A DNA stretch of 64,000 bases, taken from assembly GCA_000002435.2 (NCBI GenBank), contig CM018793.1; one strand, written 5' to 3'. This DNA is from Giardia intestinalis. Its lineage: Eukaryota. The stretch's first letter is position 1. Every line of letters begins with the position of its first letter. The position numbers were made by a program, and so were the translations under genes. The notes beneath the pieces were generated by a model, which was not told the DNA's origin, did no database searches, and saw only the letters and a list, made by a program, of their open reading frames with translations. This document shows positions 12,186-58,069 of this stretch, piece after piece.

Positions 12186-14084
12186 TTGCTACTTGCTGAA
12201 AATTGCAATAAAATGTTGATGTCTATGTCAGTCGTGCTTCTTCTGGTGCGGTCTTCTACATCTGCCAGTTGTGATGTTGACTACTGCACCGAGTGCGTCC
12301 CAGACTACCCCGATAACTGCATGATATGCCAGGATGACTATAAGCTAGACGTGGAAACGGGCAAGTGCGTTCCATGCCCAAAGGGTACATGGGGTCCCAG
12401 GTGTTCCACACGCAAGTGCTGGCTTACCACACGTGTCAATTGTCTAGAATGTAGTAGCACAGACCGGTGCTGGACTTGTGAAGACGGGTACTATGTGACG
12501 TGGTATGGGGGCTGTGGTGCGTGTGCAGAAGGCACCGGAGGCTATGAGTGTCAGGACCTCATCTGTAATGGGGTTGCACTAACGAATTGTAAGACTTGTG
12601 ATACTGCAACAGAGGGGACCTGTGCAGTTTGCAAGGATTCTTACAAGCTGATTCCAGAGACCAATAAGTGCGAAGCGTGCCCCGATGGCCGAATCGGACC
12701 AGAGTGCATTTCGATGAGGTGTCTGGCCACAACCAGAGACTATTGCCTCGAGTGTCTTTCTGGGACGAATCGTTGCAGCCGGTGTTACGACGACTTTCAT
12801 CCTAATGAGCTTGGAAAGTGTGTTCAATGTCAAGGGAATACCGGTGGCTACAATTGCGAGAAGACTAAATGCAATGGAAAGATATCCGAGAATTGTGCGA
12901 CTTGCTACTCAGCTGAAGATGCAATCTTGGAGCCAGGGGCATGCAAAGTTTGCAAAGATGGGTACTACAAGGAGTCTAGTAACTCCATTACTTGTACACC
13001 GTGTCCAGACAATAGATTGAGTGATGGGATTACATGCAATGCGGTGTTGTGTTCTGGGACCCGCTACGATAACTGCCATACGTGTACAGAAGGCGAACCA
13101 ACGTGCCAGCTCTGCATTGATGGTTATGGTCCCAATGAGACGGGCTCTTGCACGCCGTGCCCTGATGGCAAAGGCGGGCCAAACTGTGTGGGGACAAAGT
13201 GCACAGCTGATCAACTGGCCCTTGTTGACGACTGTAGATTCTGTGGAGATGATGGAGCGTGCGTTCAGTGTGCTGCAGGCTTTATGCTCGATAATAAGGA
13301 GTGCGTTCCTGTCAATGGATGCCAGAGCCCCAACTGCAGAAGCTGCACCGTCACAGAGAGAACAGAGACTTGCAAGCGTTGCCAAAAGGGATATTATGTT
13401 GTTGGGGGCAGGTGTGCACGTTGTGTCGGGAACTGCCTCGACTGTAAGAGCGCAAGCATCTGTGTTGCGTGCGAGGACGGTTATACGTTGACGGTCGACG
13501 TTTGCGTATTGAATTCCCCAGACGTAGACGTGGACTCCTGCAGCATCTCAAACTGCCTGGTGTGCCTGGCCAACAACCGAGACGTTTGTGCCACGTGTTC
13601 TAGCGGCTATCTATGGAATGCAAATGAAAAGGCCTGTGTTGTAGCTTGCCCAGATACTAACTGTATTGATTGCAATCAATCCACTGGTGAGTGCAGCGCC
13701 TGTGGCGTTGGATATGGAATGCAGGGGGCTCTCTGCTATCCTTGTACAATTAGTGATTGCTCTAGTTGCAGCTTTCGCACAGATTCTACATCAGGAGAGA
13801 GCACCGAAGTATGCGTACGGTGCTCTTCTGGAGAACTGACCACTGATGGGCAATGTAAGGAGATTGTGCGAATGAGTAAGAAGACGATTTTCGCTTCATC
13901 CGTTGGGATCGTTGTCCTAGTTCTCCTAGTGTGTATTGGTGTTGGACTCTTCTTCGTTTTTCGACGTAAGCCAGCTCAACAACTCGATGTTACTTCAGAA
14001 ACTCGTCTTATGAACTCTCAGAAAAATATGGAACCGACCTCTGTTGACACCAACCCCGAATGTGTGGAGTATGAAACTGACTAG
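12186..14084 (+). CDS. High-cysteine membrane protein (HCMP, VSP-like CxxC/EGF-like repeats, type I TM)
   Basis: Signal peptide MSMSVVLLLVRSSTSAS; dozens of CxxC motifs; a single C-terminal TM segment (IVVLVLLVCIGVGLFFVF) plus a cytoplasmic tail that does not end in CRGKA; AGTAAAT poly(A) signal about 50 nt 3' of the stop. Confidence 0.85.
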   Translation: MLLAENCNKMLMSMSVVLLLVRSSTSASCDVDYCTECVPDYPDNCMICQDDYKLDVETGKCVPCPKGTWGPRCSTRKCWLTTRVNCLECSSTDRCWTCEDGYYVTWYGGCGACAEGTGGYECQDLICNGVALTNCKTCDTATEGTCAVCKDSYKLIPETNKCEACPDGRIGPECISMRCLATTRDYCLECLSGTNRCSRCYDDFHPNELGKCVQCQGNTGGYNCEKTKCNGKISENCATCYSAEDAILEPGACKVCKDGYYKESSNSITCTPCPDNRLSDGITCNAVLCSGTRYDNCHTCTEGEPTCQLCIDGYGPNETGSCTPCPDGKGGPNCVGTKCTADQLALVDDCRFCGDDGACVQCAAGFMLDNKECVPVNGCQSPNCRSCTVTERTETCKRCQKGYYVVGGRCARCVGNCLDCKSASICVACEDGYTLTVDVCVLNSPDVDVDSCSISNCLVCLANNRDVCATCSSGYLWNANEKACVVACPDTNCIDCNQSTGECSACGVGYGMQGALCYPCTISDCSSCSFRTDSTSGESTEVCVRCSSGELTTDGQCKEIVRMSKKTIFASSVGIVVLVLLVCIGVGLFFVFRRKPAQQLDVTSETRLMNSQKNMEPTSVDTNPECVEYETD

Positions 14085-20817: not shown

Positions 20818-22728
20818 CTACGCCTTGCCCCTGCAGATGAACCACCAGCAGAGGAAGCCGACGAGGCCGCCGACAACAACGATGACAGCGACGGAGATCC
20901 CCGCTATGGCGCCTGTGCTAAGGCCGCTCTTGTTCGTGTTCCCGCCGTTGTTATCGTTACCACCATCGTTAGTGACATCTGTCTTGACGTAGCAGGTGAC
21001 AGGACCGCCATTGCCACCAGTTGGAGGGGCACAGCTTACGCAATTTGGGACACCAACAATATGGCTACCATCATTGGGATCATTGGTGTCGCACTTCACA
21101 CATTTTGCTCCGGCAAGATAGTATCCCGGAAGGCACGTTTTGCATGCCTCCTTGTTTGCTACCTCACATGTTTTACAACCAGATGCACATGCTGGACAAG
21201 ATCCAGTGCTAGCTTCTGGTTGTTGTCCATTAGCACAATTCGTACATTTTCCATTCTGAGCATTGCTACATAGGTTGCTGCCTGGGTATGCAGCCGACTG
21301 ATAGCATCCGCCAGATTGCAAGAAGTATGTGGTTGTACACGCTTTGCATGTTCCATCATTGTTATCATTTGGCATGCATCCAGTTACTGCCCTTGTCGTT
21401 GTCGACACACAGACGCCGTCCACCGGGGCGAACCCTGCCTTGCACCTGCTGCAGTACTTCGAGCCCCCAACGACGGCCGTGCACTGGCCAGCCTCGCAGT
21501 TCTCTGCGTACCTTCCCGTGCACTCTGGGATGCATGTGCCGGTGGCTCCAGTATTGCTTTTGCTCAATACAAGCCCAGGATAACAAGCTGTACAGGAGGC
21601 TTCACTATCACCATCACATTCTGCACAAGAATTATGGCAATTAGTACATATCCCGCTGACATCACGAGTTCCTGCAGGACAGCCCTCCATACACATGTTC
21701 TTTAAGGGGCTTAGGCTTTTACCTCCAGTACACTCTTCACACATATTCTCTTCATTACACTTTATACAATCCTGTATATCACATAGTACACACTTCGTTC
21801 CGTCGGCGTTGGGTTGATTAGTACCTGCTATACAAGCAGAGCACGTGATGAGAATTGTACCTTCAGGATTATCCTTCAAAGCACACGTTTTGCAGTCTGC
21901 TATCCCTTCTGAGCATTTCTTACACATTTTTCCATTAGTAGGATCGTCAGCATCATCAGTGAAGTGGGAGTTATCATTACATCCACTTTTATCAACACAT
22001 GTATTAGAGTCCTCGGTTTCGCCCTTTTTTAGATATGGCTTGTTAGCGGTTGCCTTGCACTTCGTGCATTTTCCTGCTCCTGCATCGCATTTAGCACAGT
22101 TATTGTCCTGGCATGCTGTGCATGCTGCCCCATTGCTGTCAACAAAGAACCCCTCAAGACATGACTCACATACGGCAACCTTGTCTTGGCGAGCAGCACC
22201 AGCACTGGCTGGCGGCTGACACGTAGCACAGTTCAGAATTCCTTTATACGTATTTCCACCATCCACAACTCCAGTTGCATCATTGCATGCAATACAAGAG
22301 TCCTTATTGTTAGCTGCACTTGGGTTTTTAAAATAGCCAACTACGCAACCCTCACAAACGCCAGGAGTTTTTGATGACACACGACCAGCAGCTGCGGCAT
22401 CGGCGCAAATAAGGCGTCCAACGTCCCCGCCAATTGCATAGCATCCGTTCTTATGGAGGAAGTAAGCCCCGTCGCATTGCCCACATGTCTTTTCTGTTGT
22501 TATTTCAGCTCCAGCATCAGTCTTACATCCAGCAGTTGTGACAGTAGCATCCCCCTTTGGTGTGCATACTCCGTTGATAGGAACGTCTCCTTCAGCTTTG
22601 CATTCTGTACAGATCTCAGTATCACTTGTACTTATTTTTACACACTGCGTACATTTAGCAATTTGGGCATCCGATTGACAAGCTGCCGTAAGAGCGCTCA
22701 GCACGAAGTAGAAAGCTACCAATAACAT
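20818..22728 (-). CDS. Variant-specific surface protein (VSP), 636 aa
   Basis: Signal peptide MLLVAFYFVLSALTAAC, many CxxC motifs, and the invariant C-terminus …GLVGFLCWWFICRGKA*, which is the VSP TM segment plus CRGKA tail. Confidence 0.9.
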   Translation of the reverse strand: MLLVAFYFVLSALTAACQSDAQIAKCTQCVKISTSDTEICTECKAEGDVPINGVCTPKGDATVTTAGCKTDAGAEITTEKTCGQCDGAYFLHKNGCYAIGGDVGRLICADAAAAGRVSSKTPGVCEGCVVGYFKNPSAANNKDSCIACNDATGVVDGGNTYKGILNCATCQPPASAGAARQDKVAVCESCLEGFFVDSNGAACTACQDNNCAKCDAGAGKCTKCKATANKPYLKKGETEDSNTCVDKSGCNDNSHFTDDADDPTNGKMCKKCSEGIADCKTCALKDNPEGTILITCSACIAGTNQPNADGTKCVLCDIQDCIKCNEENMCEECTGGKSLSPLKNMCMEGCPAGTRDVSGICTNCHNSCAECDGDSEASCTACYPGLVLSKSNTGATGTCIPECTGRYAENCEAGQCTAVVGGSKYCSRCKAGFAPVDGVCVSTTTRAVTGCMPNDNNDGTCKACTTTYFLQSGGCYQSAAYPGSNLCSNAQNGKCTNCANGQQPEASTGSCPACASGCKTCEVANKEACKTCLPGYYLAGAKCVKCDTNDPNDGSHIVGVPNCVSCAPPTGGNGGPVTCYVKTDVTNDGGNDNNGGNTNKSGLSTGAIAGISVAVIVVVGGLVGFLCWWFICRGKA

Positions 22729-25700
22729 TGAAGCCCTTCTTAGCTTATTATATGGACAAGAATAAGATATCCAAAGCTAAAGCACTCTACCTGATCATAC
22801 TATATCAGATAATCTCAAGAGTCCATCTCCTATGATACCTTTGTTTGAGAGATGCAAATTAGTGGGTAGTAAATGTGTCTATTGTATAAGCCATCCCTAG
22901 GGACCCTTTGGGCCTGGGCAAGCGGCCTCCAAGGAAATTCATCCTCGTGCAGCACGCAGGGAGGCAGAAACTCAAAAATAATCTGCTGGACCGCCTCACA
23001 CACCTGCTTCTCCCCTGCCCTTCAGACAATGAAAGGACGCCCTGAGTGTCCCCGCTGTGCCACAGATTTGCTGCTGGCTCCTCTCCTAACGCCCTTGTGT
23101 CCCCGAGGTGTTGGCCCCTGCGCCTTCCCTGCGCGGATCGGGTCCCTGCGAACCCCCATTCACCGGCACTCTCTTCTCAGTCCTTGCAGCATTCTCCTTC
23201 ATCAGATTATGTTTGCGGCTTCTGACTGTTGTAGGAGAGCTGGACTCAAAGACGAGCTCCCGTGAGATTCTAGCAGAAGGTTACGGTGGTCGCTAAGGTC
23301 CATGGAAGATGTGAATCGGTGTAGATTAGCCCGTGAGACGCTTTGGTTTGTTGAGCGTGGACGGCGCTATTCTTCGCTTTTTGTAATGGATATTTTAAGA
23401 TACCTCACCGCACGACAAAGACTCAATTGGAGCTCAGGAAACGCAGGCCAACACTTCTACATTTGGACAAGGAGGAAGCACTGCCCAAACCGCGTTGTCT
23501 CCTAAGCTAAGAAACCAGGACTCCCATTACCCCTTTTGGATCATCCTGGTGCTGTCCATTGTAGCAGTAGTAGAACCACGATTGCTTGCAGTGCCTGAAT
23601 CTGTTGGTATGAACGACAAAGAGTTTCTTGTGGTGGGCTACTTCGGCAGAAAAAACTTAGGCCTGTCGTGTCGCTCCGCCAGCTATTAATCAGACCCGTA
23701 ATCAGCGTCCCTGTGGTCTCAGGTAAGGTACTAGGGTAGTCGGATCTCTATCTGCTGTCAGGAAGTCGAGCAGCGTCTGATTGTCACCGTTAGTCCAACT
23801 TATGGTTGGCCCTAGGTAAACAGATCGATTGATACAAGCATCTTATCTCTGGACTCACGAACCATACCATACGAGGAATTGCACCACTACAGCCCAACAT
23901 ACTTCTCTGATGCGTAATGCGAAAAGCAGACCTCATTGCATAGCTGTAGGAGTCTGATAATACCCGACTGGGGCATTATATTTTATGTGGTCTCCAGGGT
24001 AGTTTCACTAAAGGCCGGAGCACCGCTATACATAGACTGGTATGAAAGGTGGGATCCAGCAGCATACACCTTGAGTTGGGAGTTCCATAAGCATGCGTCT
24101 CTGATACAACTCGCCAAGAATCTTGTAGGAAGCTGGCCTAGGTCAGTGACTGGAAGATCTTCAATGGGCAGACGACTATTTTGGTCTACCAGTCGCTTAT
24201 CCCCCTTGTCGTGAAGGATATCTGCTAATGTCTAGTGCTGCGGACTGGGTAGCCCTTGTTCATCTGTAAGACTCGACTGGTGTACGTTGTAGACGACTGA
24301 CGAGACTGATATCATCCTCCATCAGGTGGCTCTGGGTGAGTAGGCGAATTCTGTAGTTGATCAGTTATTTTAAGAAAGGCTGCACTTATGAAGCCATAAC
24401 TACAACTTGCATTCGACAGACAAAGGTGCCCTTGGGCTGTGGTACTCCATACAGGTTCCTCGGGATGTGTGGTACCTCAGCGTAGTCTCCAAGAGGGTAG
24501 CCCTGCCTAGTTGAGCCTCGCAGACCCAAGCACAGTACAGTACCTTTTCAAGTTTATAGAGTCAAGCGCATCTCAGACAACGAGGACAGAAGGAGACCCA
24601 GAGGCGCTAGCTGGGCTGCTCCGATCCCTGCTGTCCGGGGAATCAGCAGGGCCGCAGGATGACAGGGCCCCATTTCGTGCCCCAGGAGGCCGTGCCTTGG
24701 TGGAGGTACGCGCCACGGTCACTGTTAGCTACCCGCTAACGAGGTACTGCTGTGCTTGAAGACCTCCCGGAATGACCTTTCTCGGTTTGCTGGCCATGAG
24801 CTGGGTCATCGCGCCAGCTGATTGGATGAGAAACAATAATAGTATTATCCAGACAATGAGCCGAGAAGGCTGATGCTGACTACGTATCTCTCACACTGAG
24901 CATACCCATTATGCAGCGTAAGGGATTTGACGTCCTAGGTGACTAGGTGAATCTAAAGTGCTCGTCAGTAACGATATGCATGCAGGCTCCAGACAGGGCT
25001 CTGAGAAAATGTTAAAGAGCACAAGACCTGCTGGACTATATAGGGCACACAATGAATGCCTACGCGGTAAACAGATTGACCCTTTTCCTTGGTAGACAGA
25101 ACTCTGGTCTGCAGTAGTCACCTACATGATGCGTGCCTTTGCAGGACCGATGAAGGCACCCGCTGATCTGGAAAGGTCATCAGCAGTGGCCACACAAGAT
25201 AGACAAGCAGAGGACGGGAGCGGACTCATCCTCATGGGGATGAGCAATCTAAACTACACAACGCGTGCGCCAATCTTTGGCCGAAACAGAGATGCACTGT
25301 AGGACATCACGCAATCCAAGAGACACTTTGGCGATTCATCTGTTGTGGGAGGACGCAAGTGAGACATTTGTGGACAGCAACCACGCCGACTGGTACCGGC
25401 CTGTACAGTATGCCTCTACAATAGATCTTCGCCTGTATACGAAGGGAAGGTGAATACCCTCGGCTCCAAACGAAGCAACTCTTGATAGATATTACGCTGC
25501 CGTAAATGCATAAAATCAAAAACTAGCATCTAGTTCGTCTGCAGACCCTACGACTTCTCTAGGTTTAGAAGTCAGAGAGACACTATAGGTGTCCCTGCTG
25601 TAATCTGGACCGGTAGCTAGTCTCTCTAGCACCGGTCTTACCCCACTGATCTGTTGATTACCCTTACATTCTCCATGCGAACCGGCTCTCCAGGAGCCGC

Positions 25701-28700
25701 CATGCACGGATAGTCTTCCAAGCACCTAGCAGACATTCTTCCTCCTTGAAGCGTGTCACCGAGGACTAGGCATCATGAGGTGAGCGCAGCCAGAGGCAAA
25801 TCTCCTTGTATTCTTGCTTACTACTAATAGCAAGTATGCAAGCGAGTACACAGGCTCTTGACGAGTGCATTGTGATTTAGGCCAGTCATCACACTAGGGT
25901 TATGACACTTGATGCACAGATTTCTATTTTTAGCTTTGTATGCATATCTATGTTTCACCTTGAAAGACGGTGAAGTGCTCTGCGGGGCCTTTTTGGATAT
26001 ACAGCTGTCACTATAGCTGATGGGGGAGTAGGTGCGAAGACCTTATTCTTAAACAAAAGCATCTCTAGTATAACCGAGCGCTGTCTTCCATCAAAGTAGA
26101 CACCTTAGATGGAATGACATCTACTCTATTTACCATGGCATTGTGCGGGCCTGTATACGCTACTAGAGAAGGATCCTGCAATATCTGCTTAATTTGTCAG
26201 GCGTATACGTCTCTTGTTGTAGCGAACGCAGTGGTAGAGACAATCATCGCCGGAAGGTAATAGGACGTGCTAGCTCAGTGTAACTTTGTACAGGTAGAAG
26301 CTACAGTACGCAACCAAGAGCATAACGCGCCAGCTGTTCATGCTACTCTCCTCCCTTGTATTGCTGTGCTTACGAGTACCTGTACTGCACTGTGTGTCAG
26401 ACTGTGGCACAGAGTATCCCCAGGCTACTCATTCAGTGGATTAAAGCTAGAACGACTGATCCTATGGACAGATGGGCATCCCAAGAAGACGGCAGCCGTT
26501 ATTGTTGTTCCGGATTTTTTAGTACTCAAGCACCAACCCTATGGGGGCACCCTACTTTCCAAGTCTCTGCGCCCATATCGAGGCGTGTTGTCTGGATGGC
26601 CTAGTCATGGCCACAAGGATGATGCAAAATGGTGGTCGTTCGCAGGCCCGGCCCCAATTCGCCCCTAGCCCTAAGTCACACTCAACTGGTGCAAGATGCT
26701 CTTCTTCACCGTAGGTATGCCTTTCGCTAGATCGACAAGCTGCTTGTAACAGGCCTGCCTTGCTGACCAGCTCTGCTGGCACTTGGTTCCCCTCTGATCA
26801 CTTAAGGGCGTAGCCCCAGGCTGGGTCCACGAGACAGCGCATGCTGATGGCAGAAGACAACACAGCTCTTCTCAAATATCTCGACCTGTCAACTAGTGCG
26901 GTCCCAAAGCGCACTGTGGGTCTTGGTAGACACGCAAGTACGAATCCGGACACTTTGAGATGCTAAGATTACTCAGCAAGGACAACACAATTCACCCTGC
27001 TTCATCTGAGAGGTCAAAGCCCCAGCTATTCGGAAGCCCAGCATCAATATTCATCTGGCTTATATACTCGGGTGCGCCTTGTTGGAAACCACATTGAAGA
27101 CTCCAATTCAGCGGTTACCTGGACTCACCATCCATTACAGTCGTGCCACCATCAGGGTTAAGTTTCCTACCTCACCTGTGGTCTGTTACAAAGGCATAAT
27201 TCGCGACCGGATGCAAAGGGCTTGATCTTTTCGGTACACTATGGCTACCGGTGTACTTTACTGGCTCACTGACTCTGCCAGCATCTTCAGAGACAGAGAC
27301 GCGCCACCATCACAGATCACACAGCCCTCTGCACATCCTGGAAGGGCTCTTGTGTTGTGCAACGTCAGATCCTGCCTGTCTGATACAGAACACATGGTAC
27401 TGGACGGCTAGAGAGGGAACGATGGGCGCTTGCATCCCACACCGAACCAGTCTGACTGCACTTGGACCGTAGCTCTTTGATCTCGCTGCCATAGACAGCG
27501 AAGGACACATCCTTCTGGAGATGGGATCTCTCGAGGGTTGGCTCATGGTTCAGTCTGAGCCCAGAACTCTAGGTATGGAGTGCACCACGCAATGATGAGG
27601 ACAGTAGTAGCAGGGACACTGTTTGGACCAGGTGGCCTTCTCACATTCCTCATTGCACGTGCCTGCATCCGATGCGGTCCACTCCTTCGATATGTAACAG
27701 TTGTGGCCCGGATGGCTAGAGTCTGGACCCACAAGCTATTGCGCCTGTTGTAGCGGCAAAGAAGACGAGTCACTTGCTTGTAGGCTTTGTCTACCTTCAG
27801 CCCTATCCAGATCTGCCGTTGTGCTAACACTACTGGTACCACGCGGCCTGTGTGATGGTCATGTCCCCTTCCTGCCATTCCTGATACCAAGTCCGATAGG
27901 AGCATCCAACAGAATATCCCTGGCGTTGTGCAGTCTTCATATGATGATCGCGTTAGACTCACTGCGCACCCACCGTTGCAGTGGTTGAACTGCTGGGCTC
28001 GGGAACTGCTGGATACTTTAATACTGATAGACGATGCCAGAACAAGCAAAGATAAAAGGCCTCAAAACCCCCTGCCCGTGAATGGACTCGTTATGTGCAA
28101 CGTGCCTACCCCTATCGTGTCATGTAAGACAGTAGGATTTTGCTGGTACAGTGCATTGATACAGTGATGATGCAGAGAAGGCAGCTCTGACTTACATAGC
28201 GATAGAAAGCCTGGTGATATAGATAGCGACATTATGTGATGGCGGACCCTAGCCGATAGGCCATGGGGATACAGAGCCCTTGCAACAAAGCTGTTCTTCA
28301 CATGAAATAGTAGAGTAGCATGATGCACCACAGGAGAGAGTCCCGCTTCCTCGTTCTGTCTGTTACATTATGGCCCAAGCATCGAACTTGCTGATAGCTC
28401 CTTATTCATTCCCCTATGAAGCCCTGGACACCCATTTAATCATACTACCTAGCCCTGCATAAAGATAAAACCCCACACTTAGCACTAATGATTGAATACC
28501 TCATTCTGCCATAACGTTTCCGGTGCACTGATTCCAATCTCGAGTAGCTAAGTGGATGGATGCATCCTTGTCAGGGGTAGTGTAGGCATGAAAGACTAGA
28601 CCCCAACGACAGGTTTGCACTTTAGCTTCTCTTGTTTACTCCTTGGTGGCGTCTTATATCTCCACTCAGGCGTGTGTTCTGAGATCGCTATAAGGCATAC

Positions 28701-29760
28701 AATGGGATCTTGCAGGACTAAAAGCACCGATGCCATCTACCTCCAGAATCTGGTAATATGGGTGTCCATGTCGCAGTTCTGGCAAACAACACTTTGTTCC
28801 TATACCATCCGCTCTGACCATGTGCTTCCCTTCTCCGAGCCATTCTCGACGACAATATTCATATTGACACGGAGAGCTGTTCTGTCATGCAAAGTGACTT
28901 GCTTCGAGCCGGTTGTATGGCAGTCCAGTTGTTCCTCATCCCCTCACAGTTTTCTCTGCAGCGGTCCCCTAATGATAGCGCTGTACGGCTCGAATCTCTG
29001 ACAAGATGCCTTACTAATACGCCGCTCTTCTGTATGCGTTCGGCGCCCAGCTGGCCCACGCTGTCTCCGTGGCTTAGTTGGATGCCTCCATGCACAGGGA
29101 TTCGTCAGGCAGAAGTGGATGCGCCGTATAATGGATCGTGTTGGTGCATATAATCGGAAGTGCACGCCTCTTGTTCGTATGCTGCTGAGGGCGCTGGCTG
29201 CAATGCGTGTCGAGAACAGAGTGCTTTGGATCGGATTACCCTGTGCCTTTTGTGCTCTAGGGGCTAGGATCTTATTCCCCCAATACTAGTGCCGGACTCC
29301 AGTTGGATTATAGGAAAGGGGCTCTGTCCAGCTCTGGCCCTCTTAGTACGGAGGTGCTAAGGATGCCTCTAGGATCCTCTCTGCTGCGGTTCTGTGTGCG
29401 CATACACCGGTCTGCAGTGGTAAAACGGCCTCTATCCTAGTTTTGGCCTCTCGCTATGTCGAGTACAGAGAACTTGGGACGCCCCTGAGTTTCGCTCCTG
29501 CAACAGAATGAGACAAGGGCACGGGGCTCTAGGCTTTGCCAGATACTTGTCTGGATGAAGAAGCGAGCGCTGATGTCAGAGGCTTTTGGTTGGCTGGTGT
29601 GTTTGTGGCATGCTCGGCGTAAACTGGTGTCGGCCTGTTCTTCTCGGAGCCTCGGTAAAGTCGGTCGGCTATGAAGGGAAGGAGCTTATGACAGTCTGTC
29701 CAGTGTAACCGACAACATCTTTGCTTAGGATAGATTTACCATCTAGTTCATCAGAGTGTG
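22729..29760. other. ORF-poor non-coding tract of about 7 kb between the VSP 5' end and the cathepsin-B 3' end
   Basis: The largest ORFs on either strand are 133-168 aa and scattered across all frames. Composition is near-average, and no tRNA-like or rRNA-like motifs were recognised. Confidence 0.5.
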
Positions 29761-32175
29761 TCAATGAGTGTCATCCAATACCGTGAAAGTCGGCGTTACC
29801 GTGCACTCCATTTTCTGAGAGCATAGTTTTAGGTAGTATTGTTTGTCTCGGAGCTCCTGCATCCTCTCAGCACAGCTATCTAGATAGATCGTGTTGAGTC
29901 CTGCCACTCCCTCGACTCCGTCAAGTGCACAAACCTCCTTTCCCGCCTGCATTAGCGTGACCGAGAACCTTCTGCGAGGCAAGGGAAACACAAACCCGTG
30001 TCTATGGATAGTGAAGCTCAGAGGATCCCGCATAGTAATGGCGTCTGGAACGTCTCTGACCAGGTATCTGCTCGCCTTGACTTCAAAGTCATCCGAAGTG
30101 TTCGTGAACATGGGACTGTTGGAGCGCATGCGGACGAAGTAGTTAGGGCCAGAGGGGACAGAGGCCGGAAGAGTGTCGGCATAGAGCCCCGTGTTAGGGG
30201 CAGAGCGGGTGAACGTGTGGCGCAGGTAGCTTTTCGATCCGACCTTTTCGTACAAAAGGATCGTCATCTCAGTACCGGCTGTTAGGTTACTGGTCCATCG
30301 GATTGTAACTGCACCGCCGGGGACCCAGACACTCTGCGTAGACGGCTCCGTAATAAGCAGGGGCACGTCGCCAATAGGCTCAGGTTCGGGCTCAGGTTCG
30401 GGATCTGGGTTGGGCTGTGGTTCCGGGTCGGGCACGGGATCCTTCTTATCAGACGGGGCCGGGAGATTATCTGCAGGGTAGCTGTACGACGTGACATGCA
30501 GCGGTCCCACATCGGCGTACGCGAAGGGGGACGTCTCTGAGCGCAATCGGAGGTACGCAGCTGAGCAGTTGCCATAGGAAGACGGCAGGCGGACCTCGAT
30601 GCTTCCCGAGGGAGGCAGGCCAGCAGCGATGACATCCAGCAGTCGCTCTCCGCAATACGCCTGGAGAAGCAGCTTTGCGCCCGTCCCCGTTGAGGTATAC
30701 GAAATCTGCAGGCCCTCGGCCAACGCAGTCACCTGTGCGCCGGCGACCGGCTTAGATATCGTGATGACTGCTTCATCATTGTGCTTCTTCTCTATTGTGA
30801 GCACTGTGCTTGCGGATAGGACGGGAACGGTGTCGGACGTGGTTAGGGTCAGCGCATGCTTGCCAGCGCTCATGCTCGACGGGGCCATGCAGGATTGCGC
30901 CCCCTTACTGAGCTCCACCAGCACAGACGCGCCGTCCATCAACTTGCAGGGCACCTGGAGCGGTGCAGCGAACCGGAGTGCGACGCTCTCTCCCTCTTGT
31001 CCCTGATAGCTAGCCTTGTCGAATGCCAGCGTGAAGTAGGACGCCAACGAGAAGCGCGCAGACGTTGCGTCTCCAGTGCTGGTTGTCAGGTAGTATTGCC
31101 CTGCAGACGTGTCTCGAGGTATGGTGACGCGGGCGGTGCCACTAGAGGTCGTCAGCTTAACGAGCGACGTCACCGCTCCTGCTCCTGACTTCAGCTGGAG
31201 CTCTGCAGGGGTCGCTACCTTCTCGTACGGTATTGCAACCTCGTATCCGGCAATGTACGTTTTGGCCGTCTCTACAGTGATTGTGCCGTTTCGGGGCTCT
31301 GGCTTAGGAGTCGTGTCTATAGGCAGCGCTGAACCGGGCCACGTCTCGATCTTGAGCTCGTTGGACCCGCGCTTGATCTTGAAGTAGCCTTGGTCGCCCC
31401 AATTGGTGCCGTACGTGTTCGCACAGTCCCAGTAGGGCACGCCGTTCTCCTCGCCCCACCCGACTATCATCACGGCGTGGCCTCCCCCCAGCTTCGTATT
31501 GGGGCCGGAGCTGTAGATGCCCTTCTTGTCCTTGGAGGGGAAGTCGTTGGCCAGGTACATGGAGACCGCAATGGGCCCGTTCTGGTATATGTCGCGCATC
31601 ATCGCGTCCACGCCGCTGAGCCTGTAGGGCGCCTTGTTCTTAATGGTGCGGTCCTTGGGGCGCTTATCCTTGCAGACGGTCTTGCACGTCTCCGTGGGGT
31701 AGGGATACGTCCGGTTCCAGTAGTCCTCGCAGGTGTCGTACACCATGCCCGTCGTCTCTCCGAACTTCAGCGACGCAAGGGGATTGCCGCCGCGGCACCC
31801 GTTGTTCTGGATGTTCAGATACTTGGTGTGGTCGCACGTGACGAGGTCCTCGAGGCTCACAAGCCTGCTGTCGTTGAGCTGGAGGCACCGCCGGGCAGTG
31901 ACCATCTCCACCGCCGCCGCCGCGTAGCAGCAGCCGCACGAGCCCTGGTCTATGATCTGGATGCACCGGTGGCCCCGGTAGGTGAAGTTGGTAGGGAGCG
32001 CTGCGCGGGTCAGATCTGCGTTGTCGGGTCCATCGGGAAGCTCGTTGTACTCGTCCTCGGAAGGGAAGATCGTGCCGCCCTCGGGGTCCATCTGGTCGTC
32101 ACCCTCCCGCAAGGGGGAAGGCTCTCTGCCAAGTGTGCCATATAGCAATAGTAAGAATGGTAGAAGTACCGTCAT
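29761..32175 (-). CDS. Cathepsin B-like papain-family cysteine protease with a roughly 500-aa Ser/Thr/Ala-rich C-terminal extension
   Basis: Signal peptide MTVLLPFLLLLYGTLG; catalytic Cys block QGSCGCCYAAA; His block GGHAVMIVGWGEENGVPYW; Asn/Trp block NTYGTNWGDQGYFKIKRG; then a (PE)n/PNPDPEPEPEPEP linker (nt about 30350-30440) and a long low-complexity tail. The gene is very GC-rich. Confidence 0.85.
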   Translation of the reverse strand: MTVLLPFLLLLYGTLGREPSPLREGDDQMDPEGGTIFPSEDEYNELPDGPDNADLTRAALPTNFTYRGHRCIQIIDQGSCGCCYAAAAVEMVTARRCLQLNDSRLVSLEDLVTCDHTKYLNIQNNGCRGGNPLASLKFGETTGMVYDTCEDYWNRTYPYPTETCKTVCKDKRPKDRTIKNKAPYRLSGVDAMMRDIYQNGPIAVSMYLANDFPSKDKKGIYSSGPNTKLGGGHAVMIVGWGEENGVPYWDCANTYGTNWGDQGYFKIKRGSNELKIETWPGSALPIDTTPKPEPRNGTITVETAKTYIAGYEVAIPYEKVATPAELQLKSGAGAVTSLVKLTTSSGTARVTIPRDTSAGQYYLTTSTGDATSARFSLASYFTLAFDKASYQGQEGESVALRFAAPLQVPCKLMDGASVLVELSKGAQSCMAPSSMSAGKHALTLTTSDTVPVLSASTVLTIEKKHNDEAVITISKPVAGAQVTALAEGLQISYTSTGTGAKLLLQAYCGERLLDVIAAGLPPSGSIEVRLPSSYGNCSAAYLRLRSETSPFAYADVGPLHVTSYSYPADNLPAPSDKKDPVPDPEPQPNPDPEPEPEPEPIGDVPLLITEPSTQSVWVPGGAVTIRWTSNLTAGTEMTILLYEKVGSKSYLRHTFTRSAPNTGLYADTLPASVPSGPNYFVRMRSNSPMFTNTSDDFEVKASRYLVRDVPDAITMRDPLSFTIHRHGFVFPLPRRRFSVTLMQAGKEVCALDGVEGVAGLNTIYLDSCAERMQELRDKQYYLKLCSQKMECTVTPTFTVLDDTH

Positions 32176-32281
32176 TTTATTTCCGTGGCCGTTCCCGGAG
32201 CAGTGGCGCAGGGAGACCTGCAGGGAATCCCGCAGGGAAAGCCGTGGAATAAAAAATTGAGGAGGCTATTTACATTGCATT

Positions 32282-33721
32282 TTACTCTTCTGCAGAGTAC
32301 TTGGACATCCATCCTTCGTGGAAAACCTTCCATCTGGCGAGCAGATCGGTCATTACCTCTTCAGAAGGAAGAATAGTCATACGGAGATGGTAGGTTCCGG
32401 GCTTTTGGCCAAACATGCCACCGTCAAGCGTGAAGACTCCTACGCTATCTAGCAGATCCTGGCAGTACAATTGGTCTGGCTCTTTGCCCGCCAACCTCGC
32501 TGCTTCAATAGCGGCTGGCGGTGCATGGATTCTGGGGAAAACGTACATTGCCCCAGAAGGCTTACAGCAACTCAGCCCCCTCCAACTGTTCATCTCATGG
32601 GATACCATTCTCGCCTTGCGTTGAAGGCTAGTATAGAGAGCGTCGCATTCTCGCTTGAATTTCCAATAAGACGGCTCTCCGGGTCTCGGAGGGTTAACGA
32701 TGACATCCATAGCCATCATTCCATCCGTATTAGTTGACCCCAGTGAAATTATGTCCATTATCTGCTCCATAAATTTTGGATTCAAGTTCTCCGCTTGCCA
32801 ATAGCCGCCGCGCCGTCCACACTCACCAAAGATGGACTTTGAGGCCGAGTGGATGGAGATCAGCTCAAGGCCTTGACACTCACCCTCGGCGTTAAGCGCG
32901 TAGAGAAGCTTTCTGGCGGAGAGGAAAGGAAATTCCTCTGGCTCATAGATATTCGTTTGGTACACCTCGTCAGACATGACCATCATGTCGTTCTTGTATG
33001 CGAAACGGAGAGCGTTCTTTATATCGCTCTCTGTCAGCGTCGAGCCCGTTGGATTGTTCGGATTTATGAGGACAAGACAGCGGGGAGTCAGTCCTTCATC
33101 CTTGCATTGTTGGAGTGCAGCATCCAGAGCCTCCTGTGTAAGAGCCCACTCATTGGATTCGTCCAGGTCATAGCTGACCTCCTTTCCCCCATAGTAAACG
33201 ATCGTGGAGGCGTAAAGGGGGAATCCGGGGCGTGGGCAGAGGATGGCGTCGGTTTCGTTGCGAATTATTGGGCGGAGAAGAGTCATAATTGCCTCAGTGG
33301 CTCCGTTAGCCATGCAGACAGTGGCTGGATTGCACGGAATCTCGTCGCGATCAGAAATATACGCGGCCACGTCATCAACAACGGCAGGAATCCCCGCTGT
33401 CGCCTGGTACGACCCAGAGCTTTTCCCGGAGCACGAATTGAGAATGTGTTTGACACGTAACTCGACGTCTGTGGGCAATACATACTTCCCTATAAGATCT
33501 GGGCAGGCAAATCCGGCTACCATTTGACGAAGGTATGTGACAGGCTTCTGCCCAACACCCTGCGGGTTGCCCAGATTACACTTAATGATGGAGCTAAAGG
33601 GCGCCTGTTTCTGGGCGATTTTCTGCTCGACGCTTGAGAGATCTAGGTTCACCATGGAGAACTTGACATCGAAGAGGCCTTTGTAGCAGGTTTCAGGAGT
33701 CAAAACGGGCTGGTAAGGCAT
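32282..33721 (-). CDS. Alanine aminotransferase (PLP-dependent class I aminotransferase)
   Basis: Motifs LINPNNPTGS and SASKSIFGECGRRGGY (PLP-lysine region, compare SKGYMGECGxRGGY of ALT); length 479 aa; homology runs across the whole protein. Confidence 0.85.
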   Translation of the reverse strand: MPYQPVLTPETCYKGLFDVKFSMVNLDLSSVEQKIAQKQAPFSSIIKCNLGNPQGVGQKPVTYLRQMVAGFACPDLIGKYVLPTDVELRVKHILNSCSGKSSGSYQATAGIPAVVDDVAAYISDRDEIPCNPATVCMANGATEAIMTLLRPIIRNETDAILCPRPGFPLYASTIVYYGGKEVSYDLDESNEWALTQEALDAALQQCKDEGLTPRCLVLINPNNPTGSTLTESDIKNALRFAYKNDMMVMSDEVYQTNIYEPEEFPFLSARKLLYALNAEGECQGLELISIHSASKSIFGECGRRGGYWQAENLNPKFMEQIMDIISLGSTNTDGMMAMDVIVNPPRPGEPSYWKFKRECDALYTSLQRKARMVSHEMNSWRGLSCCKPSGAMYVFPRIHAPPAAIEAARLAGKEPDQLYCQDLLDSVGVFTLDGGMFGQKPGTYHLRMTILPSEEVMTDLLARWKVFHEGWMSKYSAEE

Positions 33722-51982: not shown

Positions 51983-53335
51983 GTGGAGGAGATTCAGCTC
52001 GATGGTTTGGATCAGCACGGTGTGGATGCTATTAAGCGTAGGCTGACCGCTCTTCTAGGCACCCTTCACCCAGACGTTCTCAAATACCACCAGGTGCTTA
52101 CAGACGGCAACGCGATCCTTGTTGTCACAGACCGCTGCTGTGGAGACCTCCGGCAGTTCATCACCGACTACAGGGACATTCACGAACCTATTCTCAGCAA
52201 GCTGGTCCTCTCCCTTCTGGGGCAGCTGGCTGGCGCCCTTGCCCACCTCCACGGGCTCAGCAGAGGTGCCCACAGCGGCTTGCCCTCTAGCGTTGTCCTC
52301 GAGCCCGACAACATCATGTTCGCTGGGGACAGGCGACGTGTCGTCCTTGGAGACTTCGGGTTCTGCAAGGGCATATTGAGTGGAGCTGCGAAGGCCGGCG
52401 ACCCCGCGTACATGGCCCCCGAGACACTCCTCTGCGGTGACATGACCCAAGCATCCGACGTCTGGAGCCTCGGGGCCATCGCATACGAGCTCGCCACCCT
52501 GAGGAAGCCGGACTTCCTAGAAGGTAAAGACCCAAAAGACGTCTTCGTTGACGGATGGAGGCCAGACCTGAGCGGTGTCGCAGACGACCTCGCAAGGAGC
52601 GTCCTTGAAGGAATGCTCGTCCTCGATCCTGCCGAGAGGCCGACAGCCAGAAGGCTTGTCCGTCTACTTCTGAGGCTTGACATCTCTGCTGATGAACAGG
52701 AGGCCCAAGACACAAGGCTAAAGGAGGCGCGCGCAGCCTTTGCAGACGCCTTGAATAGAGCCAACAACGAAACAGTAGCTCTTAGGAAGGACCCTCCTGA
52801 TCGAGCTACAAGAATGGACATCATCAGGGAGCAGTGTGCTATTGCCGCCAAGCTATTCAGGGAAATACAGGAGATTAAGGCAGAGATGGGCGAAACAGAC
52901 GAGCCAGACGAAAGGGAGGATTCAGAAGAGCCAGAGAAGAAGCACCTAATAGAGGAGGACGACTCCACCGACCTCATGAGGGCAGTCGATAGAAACGACG
53001 TGGAGGCCGTGAAGGCCCTCATACCACTCCAGGGGGGCACGAAGATGAAGGGATGCGCACTTGTAGGTGACTGGAAAATATACGAGGGAACTGCCCTGAT
53101 GAGAGCGGCGGTATATGGATACACAGAGATCGTGGGGCTGCTCGTGGAGAAAGAGAAGGGACTGAAAGATAGCAACGGATGGACGGCCCTCATGTGGGCT
53201 GTGAAGAACGATCACACAGATTGTGTCAGGCTCCTCATGAGAGAGAAGGACTTGAAGGGTTATAATGGAGGGACTGCCCTTGAAATGGCTAAGTTATGGA
53301 GAAACCATGAGATAGTCGCCCTCCTCTCAGAGTAA
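51983..53335 (+). CDS. NEK-like pseudokinase (lacks Gly-loop and HRD) + coiled coil + C-terminal ankyrin repeats
   Basis: Kinase C-lobe motifs are degenerate (LEPDNIMF instead of HRDLKPxN; DFGF; PAYMAPE), followed by ankyrin units (GTALMRAAVYGYTEIVGLL; NGWTALMWAVKNDHTDCVRLL). The beginning of the N-lobe (VFSPKKLHRRLGN…) is encoded in another frame at 51781-51982, so the N-lobe is frameshifted. Confidence 0.7.
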   Translation: MEEIQLDGLDQHGVDAIKRRLTALLGTLHPDVLKYHQVLTDGNAILVVTDRCCGDLRQFITDYRDIHEPILSKLVLSLLGQLAGALAHLHGLSRGAHSGLPSSVVLEPDNIMFAGDRRRVVLGDFGFCKGILSGAAKAGDPAYMAPETLLCGDMTQASDVWSLGAIAYELATLRKPDFLEGKDPKDVFVDGWRPDLSGVADDLARSVLEGMLVLDPAERPTARRLVRLLLRLDISADEQEAQDTRLKEARAAFADALNRANNETVALRKDPPDRATRMDIIREQCAIAAKLFREIQEIKAEMGETDEPDEREDSEEPEKKHLIEEDDSTDLMRAVDRNDVEAVKALIPLQGGTKMKGCALVGDWKIYEGTALMRAAVYGYTEIVGLLVEKEKGLKDSNGWTALMWAVKNDHTDCVRLLMREKDLKGYNGGTALEMAKLWRNHEIVALLSE

Positions 53336-55594: not shown

Positions 55595-58069
55595 TTAATG
55601 GGTGCTTGCAACGATAGACTGCTTGTAGAGCAGTGGAACTCCGGCCTTCTTTCGGAAAACGAAAAACCAAACCAGCACAGCCGCCACACCGCCGACGACG
55701 AGGACCACGCCGATGGCGATGCCAGAGATAGCACTAGACGAGAGGGCGGACTTTTTAGAGGTGTTATCGTACTCCAGACATATGGGCTTGACTGCGCCCT
55801 CTGGAACCACGCAGAGGCTGCACTTGGAGATCGCCTTGTGACACGCCTTGCACGTGCTCTCGGAGAAGTAGTACCCGGCCAGGCAGTCGAAGCATGCCTC
55901 CCCATGAGGACAGGTGGCGCAGCCCTTGGAGCACGCCTTGCACGCCCCCTTCTCCAGGTAGAACCCGCTGTTGCAGGCGCTACAGGCTCCACCGCTACAC
56001 ATTGCACAGTTCGTCGGGCATGTAAGGAGCGTTCCGTTGTACGTTATCCCGTACCCGGCCACGGTGCTGTCACACCAGCCGTCGCTCGCCTTCGTGCAGA
56101 CAGTCTTCCCGGGGAGGAGCGTGGAGGTGTAGCACCCCCCGTTGAGCCTGAAGGAGTTCGAGCTGCAAACAACACACCTACCGGCGGCGACATTCGCGCA
56201 CGCGATGCCAGCCGCCCGCGAGCTGGAGGAGGTGCACGCCCCGTTGTTGGGGTACTCCGTGCTCTTGACGCAGCGCGAGCAGTAGCTGGTCCCGCCCACC
56301 GTGAGCCCGCACTCTGCACAGCTGCTGTCCTGCACGCACTGCGGGACGCACGATCCCTTGGCACCGTCGCTGTACTGCAGCCGCCTCTTGGCAGGGCAGG
56401 AGGTGCAGTCGCCGGATGCCGGTCCGCTGCACGTGGCGCACTCAGAGCTGCACGGCTTGCATCCTCCCGAGCCCTCGACGTAGAGCCCGTCCCTGCATGC
56501 CTTGCACTTGGATTCCGACTCGCAGACTGCGCAGTTGCCGAGCGTGCACGCCACGCACCTCGAGACGCCGCCCACGGTGGCCTTGTAGTACCCGGCGGAG
56601 CCCAGGCAGTCCTTCACGCACAGACCGTGGGGGTCGAGGCTGTTGCCATCGGTACACTTTGTGCACACGTCTCTGTCCTCGCACGTGTCGCAGTTGGGGT
56701 CCTTGCACTTGGTCGCCACGCACTGACTATCGGAGAGTGTGTAGCCATACTTGCACTTCTTACAGCTCGATTCATCACACTCAGCGCAGTTCTCCACCGC
56801 GCACCCGACACACTTCCCGTCCTTCAGATAGGACTCGTCATCGCATGCGCAGCTGTGGACCGAGGATGAGGACTCCTGCACGCCCTTCTGCCCCTTGGGA
56901 CAGCTGGCCAGGCAGCTCCTCTTATCCAGGCTCAGGTAGAGGTCGCGGCACTCCAGACACTGAAGACTACTGTCCTTCATCTCACACCTTTGACATCCCT
57001 CTATTCCCCCGTTGGCTGAGTCCCCGCAGCGCCAGCATCCGTTGTTCTTGGTGAACACCTCTTTGGTTGAGCTGTTACATGCGGTACAAACGTTTTCTTT
57101 CACTGCTTGACAAATCTGAGATTCTATTTGATCCGAAACATCTTTAAATAAGTAGCATCCACCATAAAACAAGAAATATTGCCTGTTGCCCTCATTCTTA
57201 CAAGATGTACACCTTCCCGATTCAGGATCCTTTACGCAAATGTCTTCAAACCCAGTTATTGATAGACAGAGGCCATTCAGAGGAATCTCTGATGGGTTGG
57301 TGCAGCGAGAGCATAGGGATTGCCCAGACATCTCCATGATATTCTCCGGTAGACAGATGCTGTTGCTTATTGGAGTATCTCTGGCATAACAAGCATAAAA
57401 GCTCCAAATGTGTGTTTCGGGACAGTATCCACAAAGACCATTGCTTGCACCTTCAGTGATGTGCTTACATCGATAATCATACGAGCATGTATTTTTGTGG
57501 TCTGAACATTGGTAGCAATTTGGGACCACTTCTTGCTTTATCCTTGAAGAGTTACAAACTAGACACCCATATATCCCACTATATCCACCAAAGCCCACAG
57601 TGTCTCCGCATGAGATGCATCGCTCGGGAGTGCTAGTGCTGGGATTGGTGAAGGCTACAGATGGCTGCGTTTCGTTTGTTTTTGCACATTCTACACAGAT
57701 CCCCTTTTCTGCTCGTTCACAAATGAACTTTGTCCAGTCTTGAGATAAATTATAGCACCCACCATAAAAAACAAAGTGGTCATCGCCGCACTTAGTGCAC
57801 CATCCGCCTGTTTGAGATTTAGCACAGCCAGACCGAGTAGCCTTGGAATCTCCAGCCAGAACACACTTGCCATCAATCGGTACGTATCCAGACTCGCATT
57901 CTGTACAAAGAAATCGCGAGGTTACACCCAATATGCAACTATTTGGAAGGCAATTTGGTATTTTACCTTCGCAGAAGTATCCAAACCCATTGCGATATAT
58001 AGGTGCCTCCTCAGAGAAGAACTCTGCCAGAAGACAAACCAATAGCAGAACTGATAAAGATCGTGACAT
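55595..58069 (-). CDS. High-cysteine membrane protein (HCMP), 824 aa
   Basis: Signal peptide MSRSLSVLLLVCLLAEF, more than 90 Cys in CxxC/CxC arrays, one C-terminal TM (IGVVLVVGGVAAVLVWFFVF) and a short tail without CRGKA. The GC-rich coding strand produces long spurious antisense ORFs. Confidence 0.85.
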   Translation of the reverse strand: MSRSLSVLLLVCLLAEFFSEEAPIYRNGFGYFCEGKIPNCLPNSCILGVTSRFLCTECESGYVPIDGKCVLAGDSKATRSGCAKSQTGGWCTKCGDDHFVFYGGCYNLSQDWTKFICERAEKGICVECAKTNETQPSVAFTNPSTSTPERCISCGDTVGFGGYSGIYGCLVCNSSRIKQEVVPNCYQCSDHKNTCSYDYRCKHITEGASNGLCGYCPETHIWSFYACYARDTPISNSICLPENIMEMSGQSLCSRCTNPSEIPLNGLCLSITGFEDICVKDPESGRCTSCKNEGNRQYFLFYGGCYLFKDVSDQIESQICQAVKENVCTACNSSTKEVFTKNNGCWRCGDSANGGIEGCQRCEMKDSSLQCLECRDLYLSLDKRSCLASCPKGQKGVQESSSSVHSCACDDESYLKDGKCVGCAVENCAECDESSCKKCKYGYTLSDSQCVATKCKDPNCDTCEDRDVCTKCTDGNSLDPHGLCVKDCLGSAGYYKATVGGVSRCVACTLGNCAVCESESKCKACRDGLYVEGSGGCKPCSSECATCSGPASGDCTSCPAKRRLQYSDGAKGSCVPQCVQDSSCAECGLTVGGTSYCSRCVKSTEYPNNGACTSSSSRAAGIACANVAAGRCVVCSSNSFRLNGGCYTSTLLPGKTVCTKASDGWCDSTVAGYGITYNGTLLTCPTNCAMCSGGACSACNSGFYLEKGACKACSKGCATCPHGEACFDCLAGYYFSESTCKACHKAISKCSLCVVPEGAVKPICLEYDNTSKKSALSSSAISGIAIGVVLVVGGVAAVLVWFFVFRKKAGVPLLYKQSIVASTH

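Follow-up and report, generated by a model that had tools for sequence, protein, structure and literature searches.

The closest described relatives of the gene examined here are the short cathepsin B enzymes of Giardia, among them CP2 (giardipain-1, GL50803_14019), CP3 (GL50803_16779) and GL50803_16160. They too are secretory papain-family (C1A) proteases of the cathepsin B lineage and belong to a class implicated in virulence. Their precursors are 76 aa longer than the mature enzymes, from which the prodomain is cleaved, and they possess no C-terminal domains. With lengths of 296-300 aa they bear out the figure of about 300 aa quoted in an earlier note on the DNA studied here. Like the protein described below, they are reported to lack a functional occluding loop (PMC10454693). 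Nine cathepsin B-like genes have been counted in isolate WB, eight of which give mature enzymes of 20-25 kDa (PMC5955458). In comparative work a further group has been passed over: 14 sequences labelled 'GPI anchor' (glycosylphosphatidylinositol anchor) were dropped from the cathepsin orthogroup and from the cathepsin B tree as 'very dissimilar' (PMC6939161). We analysed a stretch of 64,000 nucleotides from G. intestinalis contig CM018793.1 (assembly GCA_000002435.2), referred to as the window, and in particular a gene at 29761..32175 on its minus strand. This gene encodes a C1A protease with a C-terminal tail of 518 aa, and its family probably includes the 14 excluded sequences. Their label was probably derived from the association of the Kre9/KNH domain (PF10342), which the tail carries, with GPI-anchored fungal proteins.

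Domain architecture of the protein

The gene lies on the 4.02-Mb chromosome and forms a complete, single-exon coding sequence of 804 codons followed by a TGA stop. According to an exact database match the product is G. intestinalis WB XP_001705840.1 (KAE8304641.1, UniProt A8BP15), annotated as 'Cathepsin B-like cysteine proteinase'. All parts of the protein named below are encoded on the minus strand. The N-terminus is a predicted signal peptide (aa 1-16, MTVLLPFLLLLYGTLG; 32128..32175), and a hydrophobic N-terminus is kept in all orthologs. It is followed by a short acidic pro-segment of 43 aa (aa 17-59; 31999..32127) with the family-conserved sequence GGTIFPxxDEYxxLPDGP, and by the catalytic domain (aa 60-286; 31318..31998), both delimited by Pfam and alignment. 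Peptidase_C1 (PF00112) matched aa 61-278 with 140.1 bits against a cutoff of 20.7 (E 1.5e-40). Gln77, Cys83, His233 and Asn253 aligned with Q23, C29, H199 and N219 of cathepsin B and were kept in all Giardia copies. The catalytic domain is therefore complete, as the earlier note had stated.

The closest PDB sequences to this protease head were those of cathepsin B (9e-30, 106.8 bits), with the catalytic residues aligned, followed by weaker matches to cathepsin H (8e-24), dipeptidyl peptidase 1 (6e-23), cathepsin S (2e-19) and cathepsin X (3e-16). By overall similarity the head is cathepsin B-like, but judged from its sequence it fails two features that define cathepsin B. The first is the occluding loop, a segment of about 20 aa in which the pair His110-His111 confers carboxydipeptidase activity. 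In the head this loop is shortened to CEDYWNRTYPYPTETC, which stands opposite a 21-residue stretch of cathepsin B and contains no His-His pair. An insertion of about 13 residues that forms the loop in the canonical homolog P0037 was absent across the whole family of long proteins. The second feature is the propeptide: neither Propeptide_C1 (PF08127) nor I29 was detected in the window protein by Pfam at E values up to 1, although PF08127 was present in the canonical homologs P0037 and P0039. Because the occluding loop is shortened and lacks the His-His pair, endopeptidase rather than carboxydipeptidase action is expected by analogy with the structure and function of cathepsin B. With its catalytic residues in place, the head appears to be a catalytically competent C1A endopeptidase.

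The active site shows a further peculiarity. The motif reads CGCCY (within QGSCGCCYA), in which Cys83 is the nucleophile and Cys82 its immediate neighbour (31927..31932). It is found in both G. intestinalis and G. muris, whereas canonical cathepsin B and the short Giardia enzymes have CGSCW at the same position. The vicinal pair Cys82-Cys83 might act as a redox switch, that is, it might gate the enzyme by redox state in a microaerophile.

The extension after the catalytic domain comprises 518 aa, close to the length of some 500 residues noted earlier. Behind the C1 domain come 290 aa rich in Ala, Ser and Thr, then a hinge with a Pro-Glu-type run and then 200 further residues. The run, which the earlier note had placed as a linker at the catalytic junction, thus occupies aa 580-600 (30376..30438), 300 residues past the domain and 200 before the C-terminus. 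Nor is the extension of low complexity. The Shannon entropy of its regions was 3.9-4.1 bits, against 4.19 bits in the C1 domain; no more than some 25 residues, covered by 12-residue windows starting at aa 579-592, fell below a SEG-like cutoff.

The tail was modelled on its own (aa 287-804) with AlphaFold (AF2) from an alignment of 9 sequences. The model had a mean predicted local distance difference test score (pLDDT) of 77.5, was all-beta except for two short helices, and was divided into five domains, with disorder confined to aa 565-603. D1 (aa 295-381; 31033..31293; pLDDT 85-95), D2 (aa 382-462; 30790..31032; pLDDT 88-95) and D3 (aa 466-564; 30484..30780; pLDDT 76-85) were modelled as beta-sandwiches. 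D1 showed a sub-threshold similarity to Kre9_KNH (E 0.07), and D3, which carries Cys508, Cys537 and the motif YCGERL, is shared with the metagenomic relative P0053. The hinge (aa 565-603; 30367..30483) had pLDDT values below 50 and was also recognised by alignment and entropy; it begins with an invariant LPAP (571-574) and continues with the alternating Pro-Asp/Glu run. D4 (aa 604-701; 30073..30366; pLDDT 79-87) is a Kre9/KNH-like domain of immunoglobulin-like (Ig-like) type, with PF10342 matching aa 611-699 at 49.6 bits (cutoff 24.6; E 6.7e-13). It was modelled from strands only, as a beta-sandwich, and is the best-conserved part of the tail. D5 (aa 702-804; 29764..30072; pLDDT 55-79), a beta-rich domain, contains four conserved cysteines (749, 768, 785 and 791) and ends without a hydrophobic anchor. 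The conserved cysteines of D3 and D5 would fit an extracytoplasmic protein. In keeping with the earlier note, no transmembrane (TM) segment was found in the window protein, the highest 19-residue Kyte-Doolittle window being 1.17, and there was no GPI-like tail (the last 30 aa have a mean of -0.52). A full-length AF2 run on 7 sequences reached a pLDDT of only 47 and did not fold the C1 domain, but the tail was already all-beta.

Foldseek aligned the tail model with strings of immunoglobulin, fibronectin type III and macroglobulin (MG) domains, as in the ectodomains of receptor-type protein tyrosine phosphatases, complement C3/C5, alpha-2-macroglobulin and the GhpA grappling hook. TM-scores were low (with E values down to 1e-13) because the geometry between domains is free. 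Pfam searches with single tail domains gave sub-threshold matches only, and a PDB search with a profile of the tail gave only chance-level matches and no solved structure related by sequence. The same profile was run against 1.84 billion representative proteins. It recovered hundreds of relatives by way of the Kre9/KNH domain, on which almost all matches outside the family fell, mostly in bacterial tandem arrays of the type IX secretion system (T9SS) type, and for D1-D3 and D5 this search found no sequence relatives beyond fornicates. We also considered whether the modules are repeats of one another. Comparison of the five domains with hhalign gave weak scores (at best E 4e-4 over 32 columns for D3-D4, and 0.026 for D1-D4), which do not demonstrate a common origin.

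Relatives, selective constraint and proposed function

The window protein is one member of a family. A paralog in WB (P0003; XP_001710319.1, UniProt A8B3V3; 804 aa, 97% identical) is located on the 1.97-Mb chromosome (chr3). Assemblage B possesses an ortholog of 807 aa (P0030), 76% identical over the whole protein, and a second copy of 811 aa (at L006). The same architecture was present in a partial sequence from P15 (assemblage E), and the G. muris protein P0033 has 950 aa and 38% identity. Three more relatives were added by the tail profile. P0064, a Logan sequence of 777 aa encoded on an 80-kb contig from a eukaryote with a compact genome and few introns, keeps Gln, Cys, His and Asn. P0135 from Chilomastix cuspidata (EukProt; 1131 aa) has the same uninterrupted architecture, and P0053 is a metagenomic sequence truncated at the N-terminus. 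In P0135 the catalytic Cys is replaced by Asp (QGACRADWAF), many Kre9/KNH-like modules are present and the C-terminus is a hydrophobic anchor; this protein may be a pseudo-protease adhesin.

In the window protein, P0003, P0030, the L006 gene, P0033, P0064 and P0135 a single ORF encodes the C1 domain, Ig-like modules, the LPAP/Pro-acidic hinge and the Kre9_KNH domain in this order. On this basis we define a 'long C1 protease' family of fornicates that is conserved from Giardia to Chilomastix. The stalk between head and hinge varies in length. G. intestinalis has three modules before the hinge, the G. muris protein is longer by about 146 residues in the part between D2 and D3, and P0053 and the Chilomastix protein carry more stalk modules than G. 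intestinalis. The hinge and the Kre9/KNH domain, on the other hand, are found in every member, and the stretch that runs from LPAP across Kre9 contains most of the invariant residues. P0053 and the Chilomastix protein have a C-terminal hydrophobic segment right after the distal domain (Kyte-Doolittle values of 2.02 and 2.41, respectively). By the same measure no such segment was found in Giardia, including G. muris, or in P0064.

The family also bears on whether the long protein is real. A gene of about 300 codons could have been joined falsely to a downstream ORF by an error of assembly or annotation, and the earlier note had named a stop codon near residue 300 as the sign to look for. Nothing beyond the unusual length speaks for such an artefact. 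All orthologs and paralogs, from assemblages A, B and E, G. muris and distant fornicates, read through this position. The ORF is continuous at two loci each in A and B and in independent assemblies, and the stop codon and polyadenylation-like signal of the gene stand at its 3' end only. The fusion is therefore genuine, and we give the artefact practically no credence.

Selection was estimated by the method of Nei and Gojobori from the window gene and its assemblage B ortholog, between which synonymous divergence (dS) is about 1. The ratio of nonsynonymous to synonymous divergence (dN/dS) was 0.13 for the whole gene; it was lowest in the C1 domain, at 0.053, and amounted to 0.154 in the tail (0.11-0.22 for its single domains). 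Hence the tail is constrained coding sequence, and purifying selection acts on every part of the protein.

We infer from these features a secretory-pathway enzyme with a modular tail, in which the protease head is carried on an Ig-like stalk with a distal attachment end; we put the probability of this reading at roughly 0.6. In order, it would consist of signal peptide, 43-aa pro-segment, C1 domain without occluding loop, three Ig-like domains, hinge, Kre9/KNH domain and the Cys-bearing D5. D1-D3 would serve as a spacer stalk whose number of modules differs between lineages. The extended and probably protease-resistant Pro/acidic hinge would form, together with the Kre9/KNH domain and D5, the attachment or targeting end. 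With the hydrophobic anchor that follows it in some relatives, this end might keep the protease head exposed at a distance from the cell surface. Because the Giardia proteins have no anchor, the Giardia enzyme would either be released or stay attached without a covalent bond through D4-D5, for instance to a glycan or protein on the parasite, on the cyst wall or in host mucus. The cell-surface or substrate-targeting role suggested in the earlier note fits the Ig-like stalk and the anchors of two relatives, and to that extent it may stand; as an account of function it is still conjecture.

Several points weigh against this reading. The signal peptide was called by eye, and the anchor behind the idea of display is absent from Giardia. 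The tail model derives from an alignment of only 9 sequences and is moderately confident for D5, the full-length AF2 prediction, which failed to model the C1 domain, leaves the geometry of head and stalk undefined, and the generic fold matches of the tail would point to no particular ligand. The searchable literature yielded no paper describing the protein, its GiardiaDB ID, localisation, processing, activity or expression. Six tryptic peptides were not found in the examined portions of the Ma'ayeh 2017 secretome supplements, which is a weak negative. The Dubourg 2018 supplements likewise had no entry for the protein.

It might be asked whether the tail is kept in the mature enzyme at all. The hinge or the junction between C1 and D1 could be cleaved during maturation to free an enzyme of about 25 kDa, and the tail might then serve only in folding, sorting or transient inhibition, offsetting the missing classical propeptide. 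The disordered hinge and the pro-segment of merely 43 aa, without detectable Propeptide_C1 or I29, would suit such a scheme, and RD21-type proteases of plants lose their granulin domain in a similar manner. Moreover, the review that counts eight of nine WB genes as giving 20-25 kDa enzymes discusses no large species (PMC5955458). Against cleavage, selection constrains the tail domains as strongly as it does many enzymes, and the terminal anchors of two relatives would make little sense on a pro-piece that is discarded. Alternating Pro-Asp/Glu tracts are, by analogy with EP procyclin, generally poor protease substrates, and the hinge may resist cleavage for this reason. On balance we consider removal of the tail unlikely, though it is the most serious of the competing explanations.

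Less probable still is that the protein is in essence a surface or secreted binding protein in which the C1 domain is one more binding module. Such a role would suit the adhesin-like Ig modules of the tail and the Asp that takes the place of the catalytic Cys in Chilomastix. It is hard to reconcile with the retention of Gln, Cys, His and Asn in all Giardia copies and in P0064, and with the C1 domain being the most constrained part of the gene. We regard it as improbable.

The reading of a stalked protease can be carried further. The family may comprise ancient 'stalked' surface proteases of fornicates in which hinge, Kre9/KNH domain and D5 act as a foot that binds a glycan or another partner and fastens the active endopeptidase to a particular surface, for instance the cyst wall with its polymer of N-acetylgalactosamine during encystation and excystation, or host mucus. 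We hold this joint proposal to be doubtful. Were it true, Giardia would possess a protease whose action is directed to particular places, unlike the 25-kDa cathepsin B enzymes, which are secreted freely. If the protein keeps its full size, Giardia would have a cysteine protease of 85 kDa with a targeting module of its own, which would bear on zymograms, inhibitor studies, surface and secretome proteomics and its use as a candidate antigen.

The locus and its homogenised tract

The gene is not equally GC-rich throughout. The earlier note had called the whole gene unusually GC-rich, and its overall G+C content is indeed 0.59 compared with 0.50 for the window. Its G+C content at third codon positions (GC3) of 0.73 is the highest of the real genes among 21 long ORFs in the window (others 0.43-0.65). 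The extreme values, however, are confined to the C1 domain: GC3 steps from 0.90 there to 0.58-0.69 over the domains of the extension, and in blocks of 50 codons it is 0.88-0.92 at codons 50-250 and 0.58-0.82 later. Over the same codons the assemblage B orthologs have a GC3 of 0.66-0.68, so that the high value in C1 is limited to the copies of assemblage A. Among synonymous third-position differences in C1, 56 have G/C in A and A/T in B and 7 are the reverse.

Two loci, one adjacent to the gene for alanine aminotransferase (AlaAT) and the other adjacent to that for eIF4E, each have a copy in assemblages A and B (besides the window, L001/L003 on chr3 of A, and L004 and L006 in B). Paralogs share 97.0% identity within A and 96.5% within B, and every pair between A and B is 76-77% identical. 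In the window the tract that is 96.5-97.8% identical to the chr3 locus extends over 28629..32264 and comprises the gene, 89 nt upstream and at least 1.1 kb downstream, its lower limit being set by the end of contig L003. It measures at least 3.6 kb in A and at least 2.6 kb in B. To judge from these identities, the copies bear the mark of concerted evolution through gene conversion between chromosomes. The dS between paralogs has its minimum, 0.020, in the C1 domain. Since the GC3 step is confined to C1 and to assemblage A and accompanies homogenisation of the paralogs, it is poor evidence of the high expression proposed in the earlier note. We suspect that GC-biased gene conversion would explain the step at least as well. 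For Giardia, the locus is a clear case of concerted evolution between chromosomes accompanied by a GC3 footprint.

Copy number and annotation of the long family in WB look unsettled. A third copy on chr3 (P0005 / P0007) is annotated with 714 aa (XP_001704385.2), an older annotation being a 168-aa 'hypothetical protein GL50803_119224', and the Logan contigs break just past the gene.

The 251-aa antisense ORF mentioned in the earlier note does exist (31390..32145, plus strand). Its codons are exactly aligned with those of the sense frame, and over aa 12-281 the sense frame uses no TTA, CTA or TCA codon. A stop-free antisense run of that length occurred in 0.65% of synonymous resamplings at the average codon usage of the window. 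We reject it as a gene: the GC3 bias explains it as a by-product of codon register. Overlapping pairs of long sense and antisense ORFs were also observed elsewhere in the window, at 55595..58069 (-) with 55598..56869 (+) and at 51983..53335 (+) with 52180..53193 (-). The plus-strand ORF of the first pair (423 aa) has a G+C content at first codon positions of 0.81, like the 251-aa antisense ORF, and these pairs are probably by-products of the same kind.

The intergenic region upstream of the gene (32176..32264, minus strand) is short and contains the A/T-rich, initiator-like GAAATAAAATG abutting the ATG. By comparison with Giardia promoters in general, this element probably has a promoter role. 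The tract common to this locus and the chr3 paralog reaches no further upstream than this region, beyond which lies the annotated AlaAT gene (32282..33721). Downstream, a putative polyadenylation signal GGTAAAT (29734..29740, minus strand) is located 21-27 nt past the stop codon; it resembles the AGTRAAY-type polyadenylation signal of Giardia. About 7 kb (22729..29760) separate the protease gene from a gene for a Cys-rich surface protein at 20818..22728 (-), which ends in a TM segment and CRGKA, the signature of the variant-specific surface proteins. The genome is otherwise compact, but this interval contains no ORF of 173 aa or more, its stop-to-stop ORFs look non-coding, and at least 28629..29760 falls within the tract shared with chr3. 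An Rfam scan of 22000..33000 gave zero matches. Another gene for a Cys-rich surface protein, with CxxC-rich sequence at its start, is found at 12186..14084 (+).

Comparison with known systems

As far as we could find, the window protein represents an annotated yet apparently unstudied multi-domain C1A protease family of fornicates. Its conserved multi-domain form is present in two or three copies per genome that are kept homogeneous between chromosomes, and its tail supplies three types of beta-sandwich domain that are confined to fornicates at the level of detectable sequence similarity. The theme of a papain-like protease with C-terminal accessory domains, on the other hand, is already known.

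PF10342 is shared with fungal Kre9/Knh1 and with GPI-anchored, Ser/Thr-rich Kre9_KNH proteins such as SsGSP1, which are secreted or surface glycoproteins linked to the assembly of cell-wall glucan (PMC12091936). The fungal proteins have about 200-280 aa and no protease, and many are GPI-anchored, whereas the Giardia protein has no GPI-type C-terminal signal. We know of no beta-1,6-glucan wall in Giardia.

The strongest outside relatives of the Kre9_KNH domain of the window protein are bacterial tandem arrays, and bacterial proteases with Ig arrays also combine a protease head with strings of beta-sandwiches. Examples are T9SS cargo with tandem Kre9_KNH domains and C1 peptidases with PKD domains or a Por_Secre_tail, and gingipains follow the same logic. 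The window protein differs from them by a predicted eukaryotic signal peptide and by the absence of a T9SS C-terminal sorting domain.

The MG arrays of alpha-2-macroglobulin and complement C3/C5 were the top Foldseek matches (E 1e-10 to 1e-13), but with TM-scores of 0.1-0.2 and 9-13% identity, and a thioester, a bait region and a CUB domain are all missing from the window protein. Pfam MG2 scored 32.6 bits in the G. muris ortholog, just under the cutoff of 32.8, and did not match the window protein. We therefore rejected membership of this group; the likeness is at the level of the fold only.

Parallels for the overall plan are plant proteases of the RD21/XBCP3 type, in which a C1A domain is joined by a Pro-rich linker to a granulin domain, and the trypanosomatid enzymes cruzipain and CPB with their C-terminal extension. 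In these, too, a hinge rich in Pro or Thr leads from the C1A domain to a disulfide-bonded C-terminal domain, whose function is debated and which may be retained or shed. Pfam detected no granulin domain in the window protein. The plant and trypanosomatid enzymes are cathepsin L-like, possess full I29 prodomains and carry a single tail domain of about 100-130 aa, where the long protease of Giardia has five Ig-like modules.

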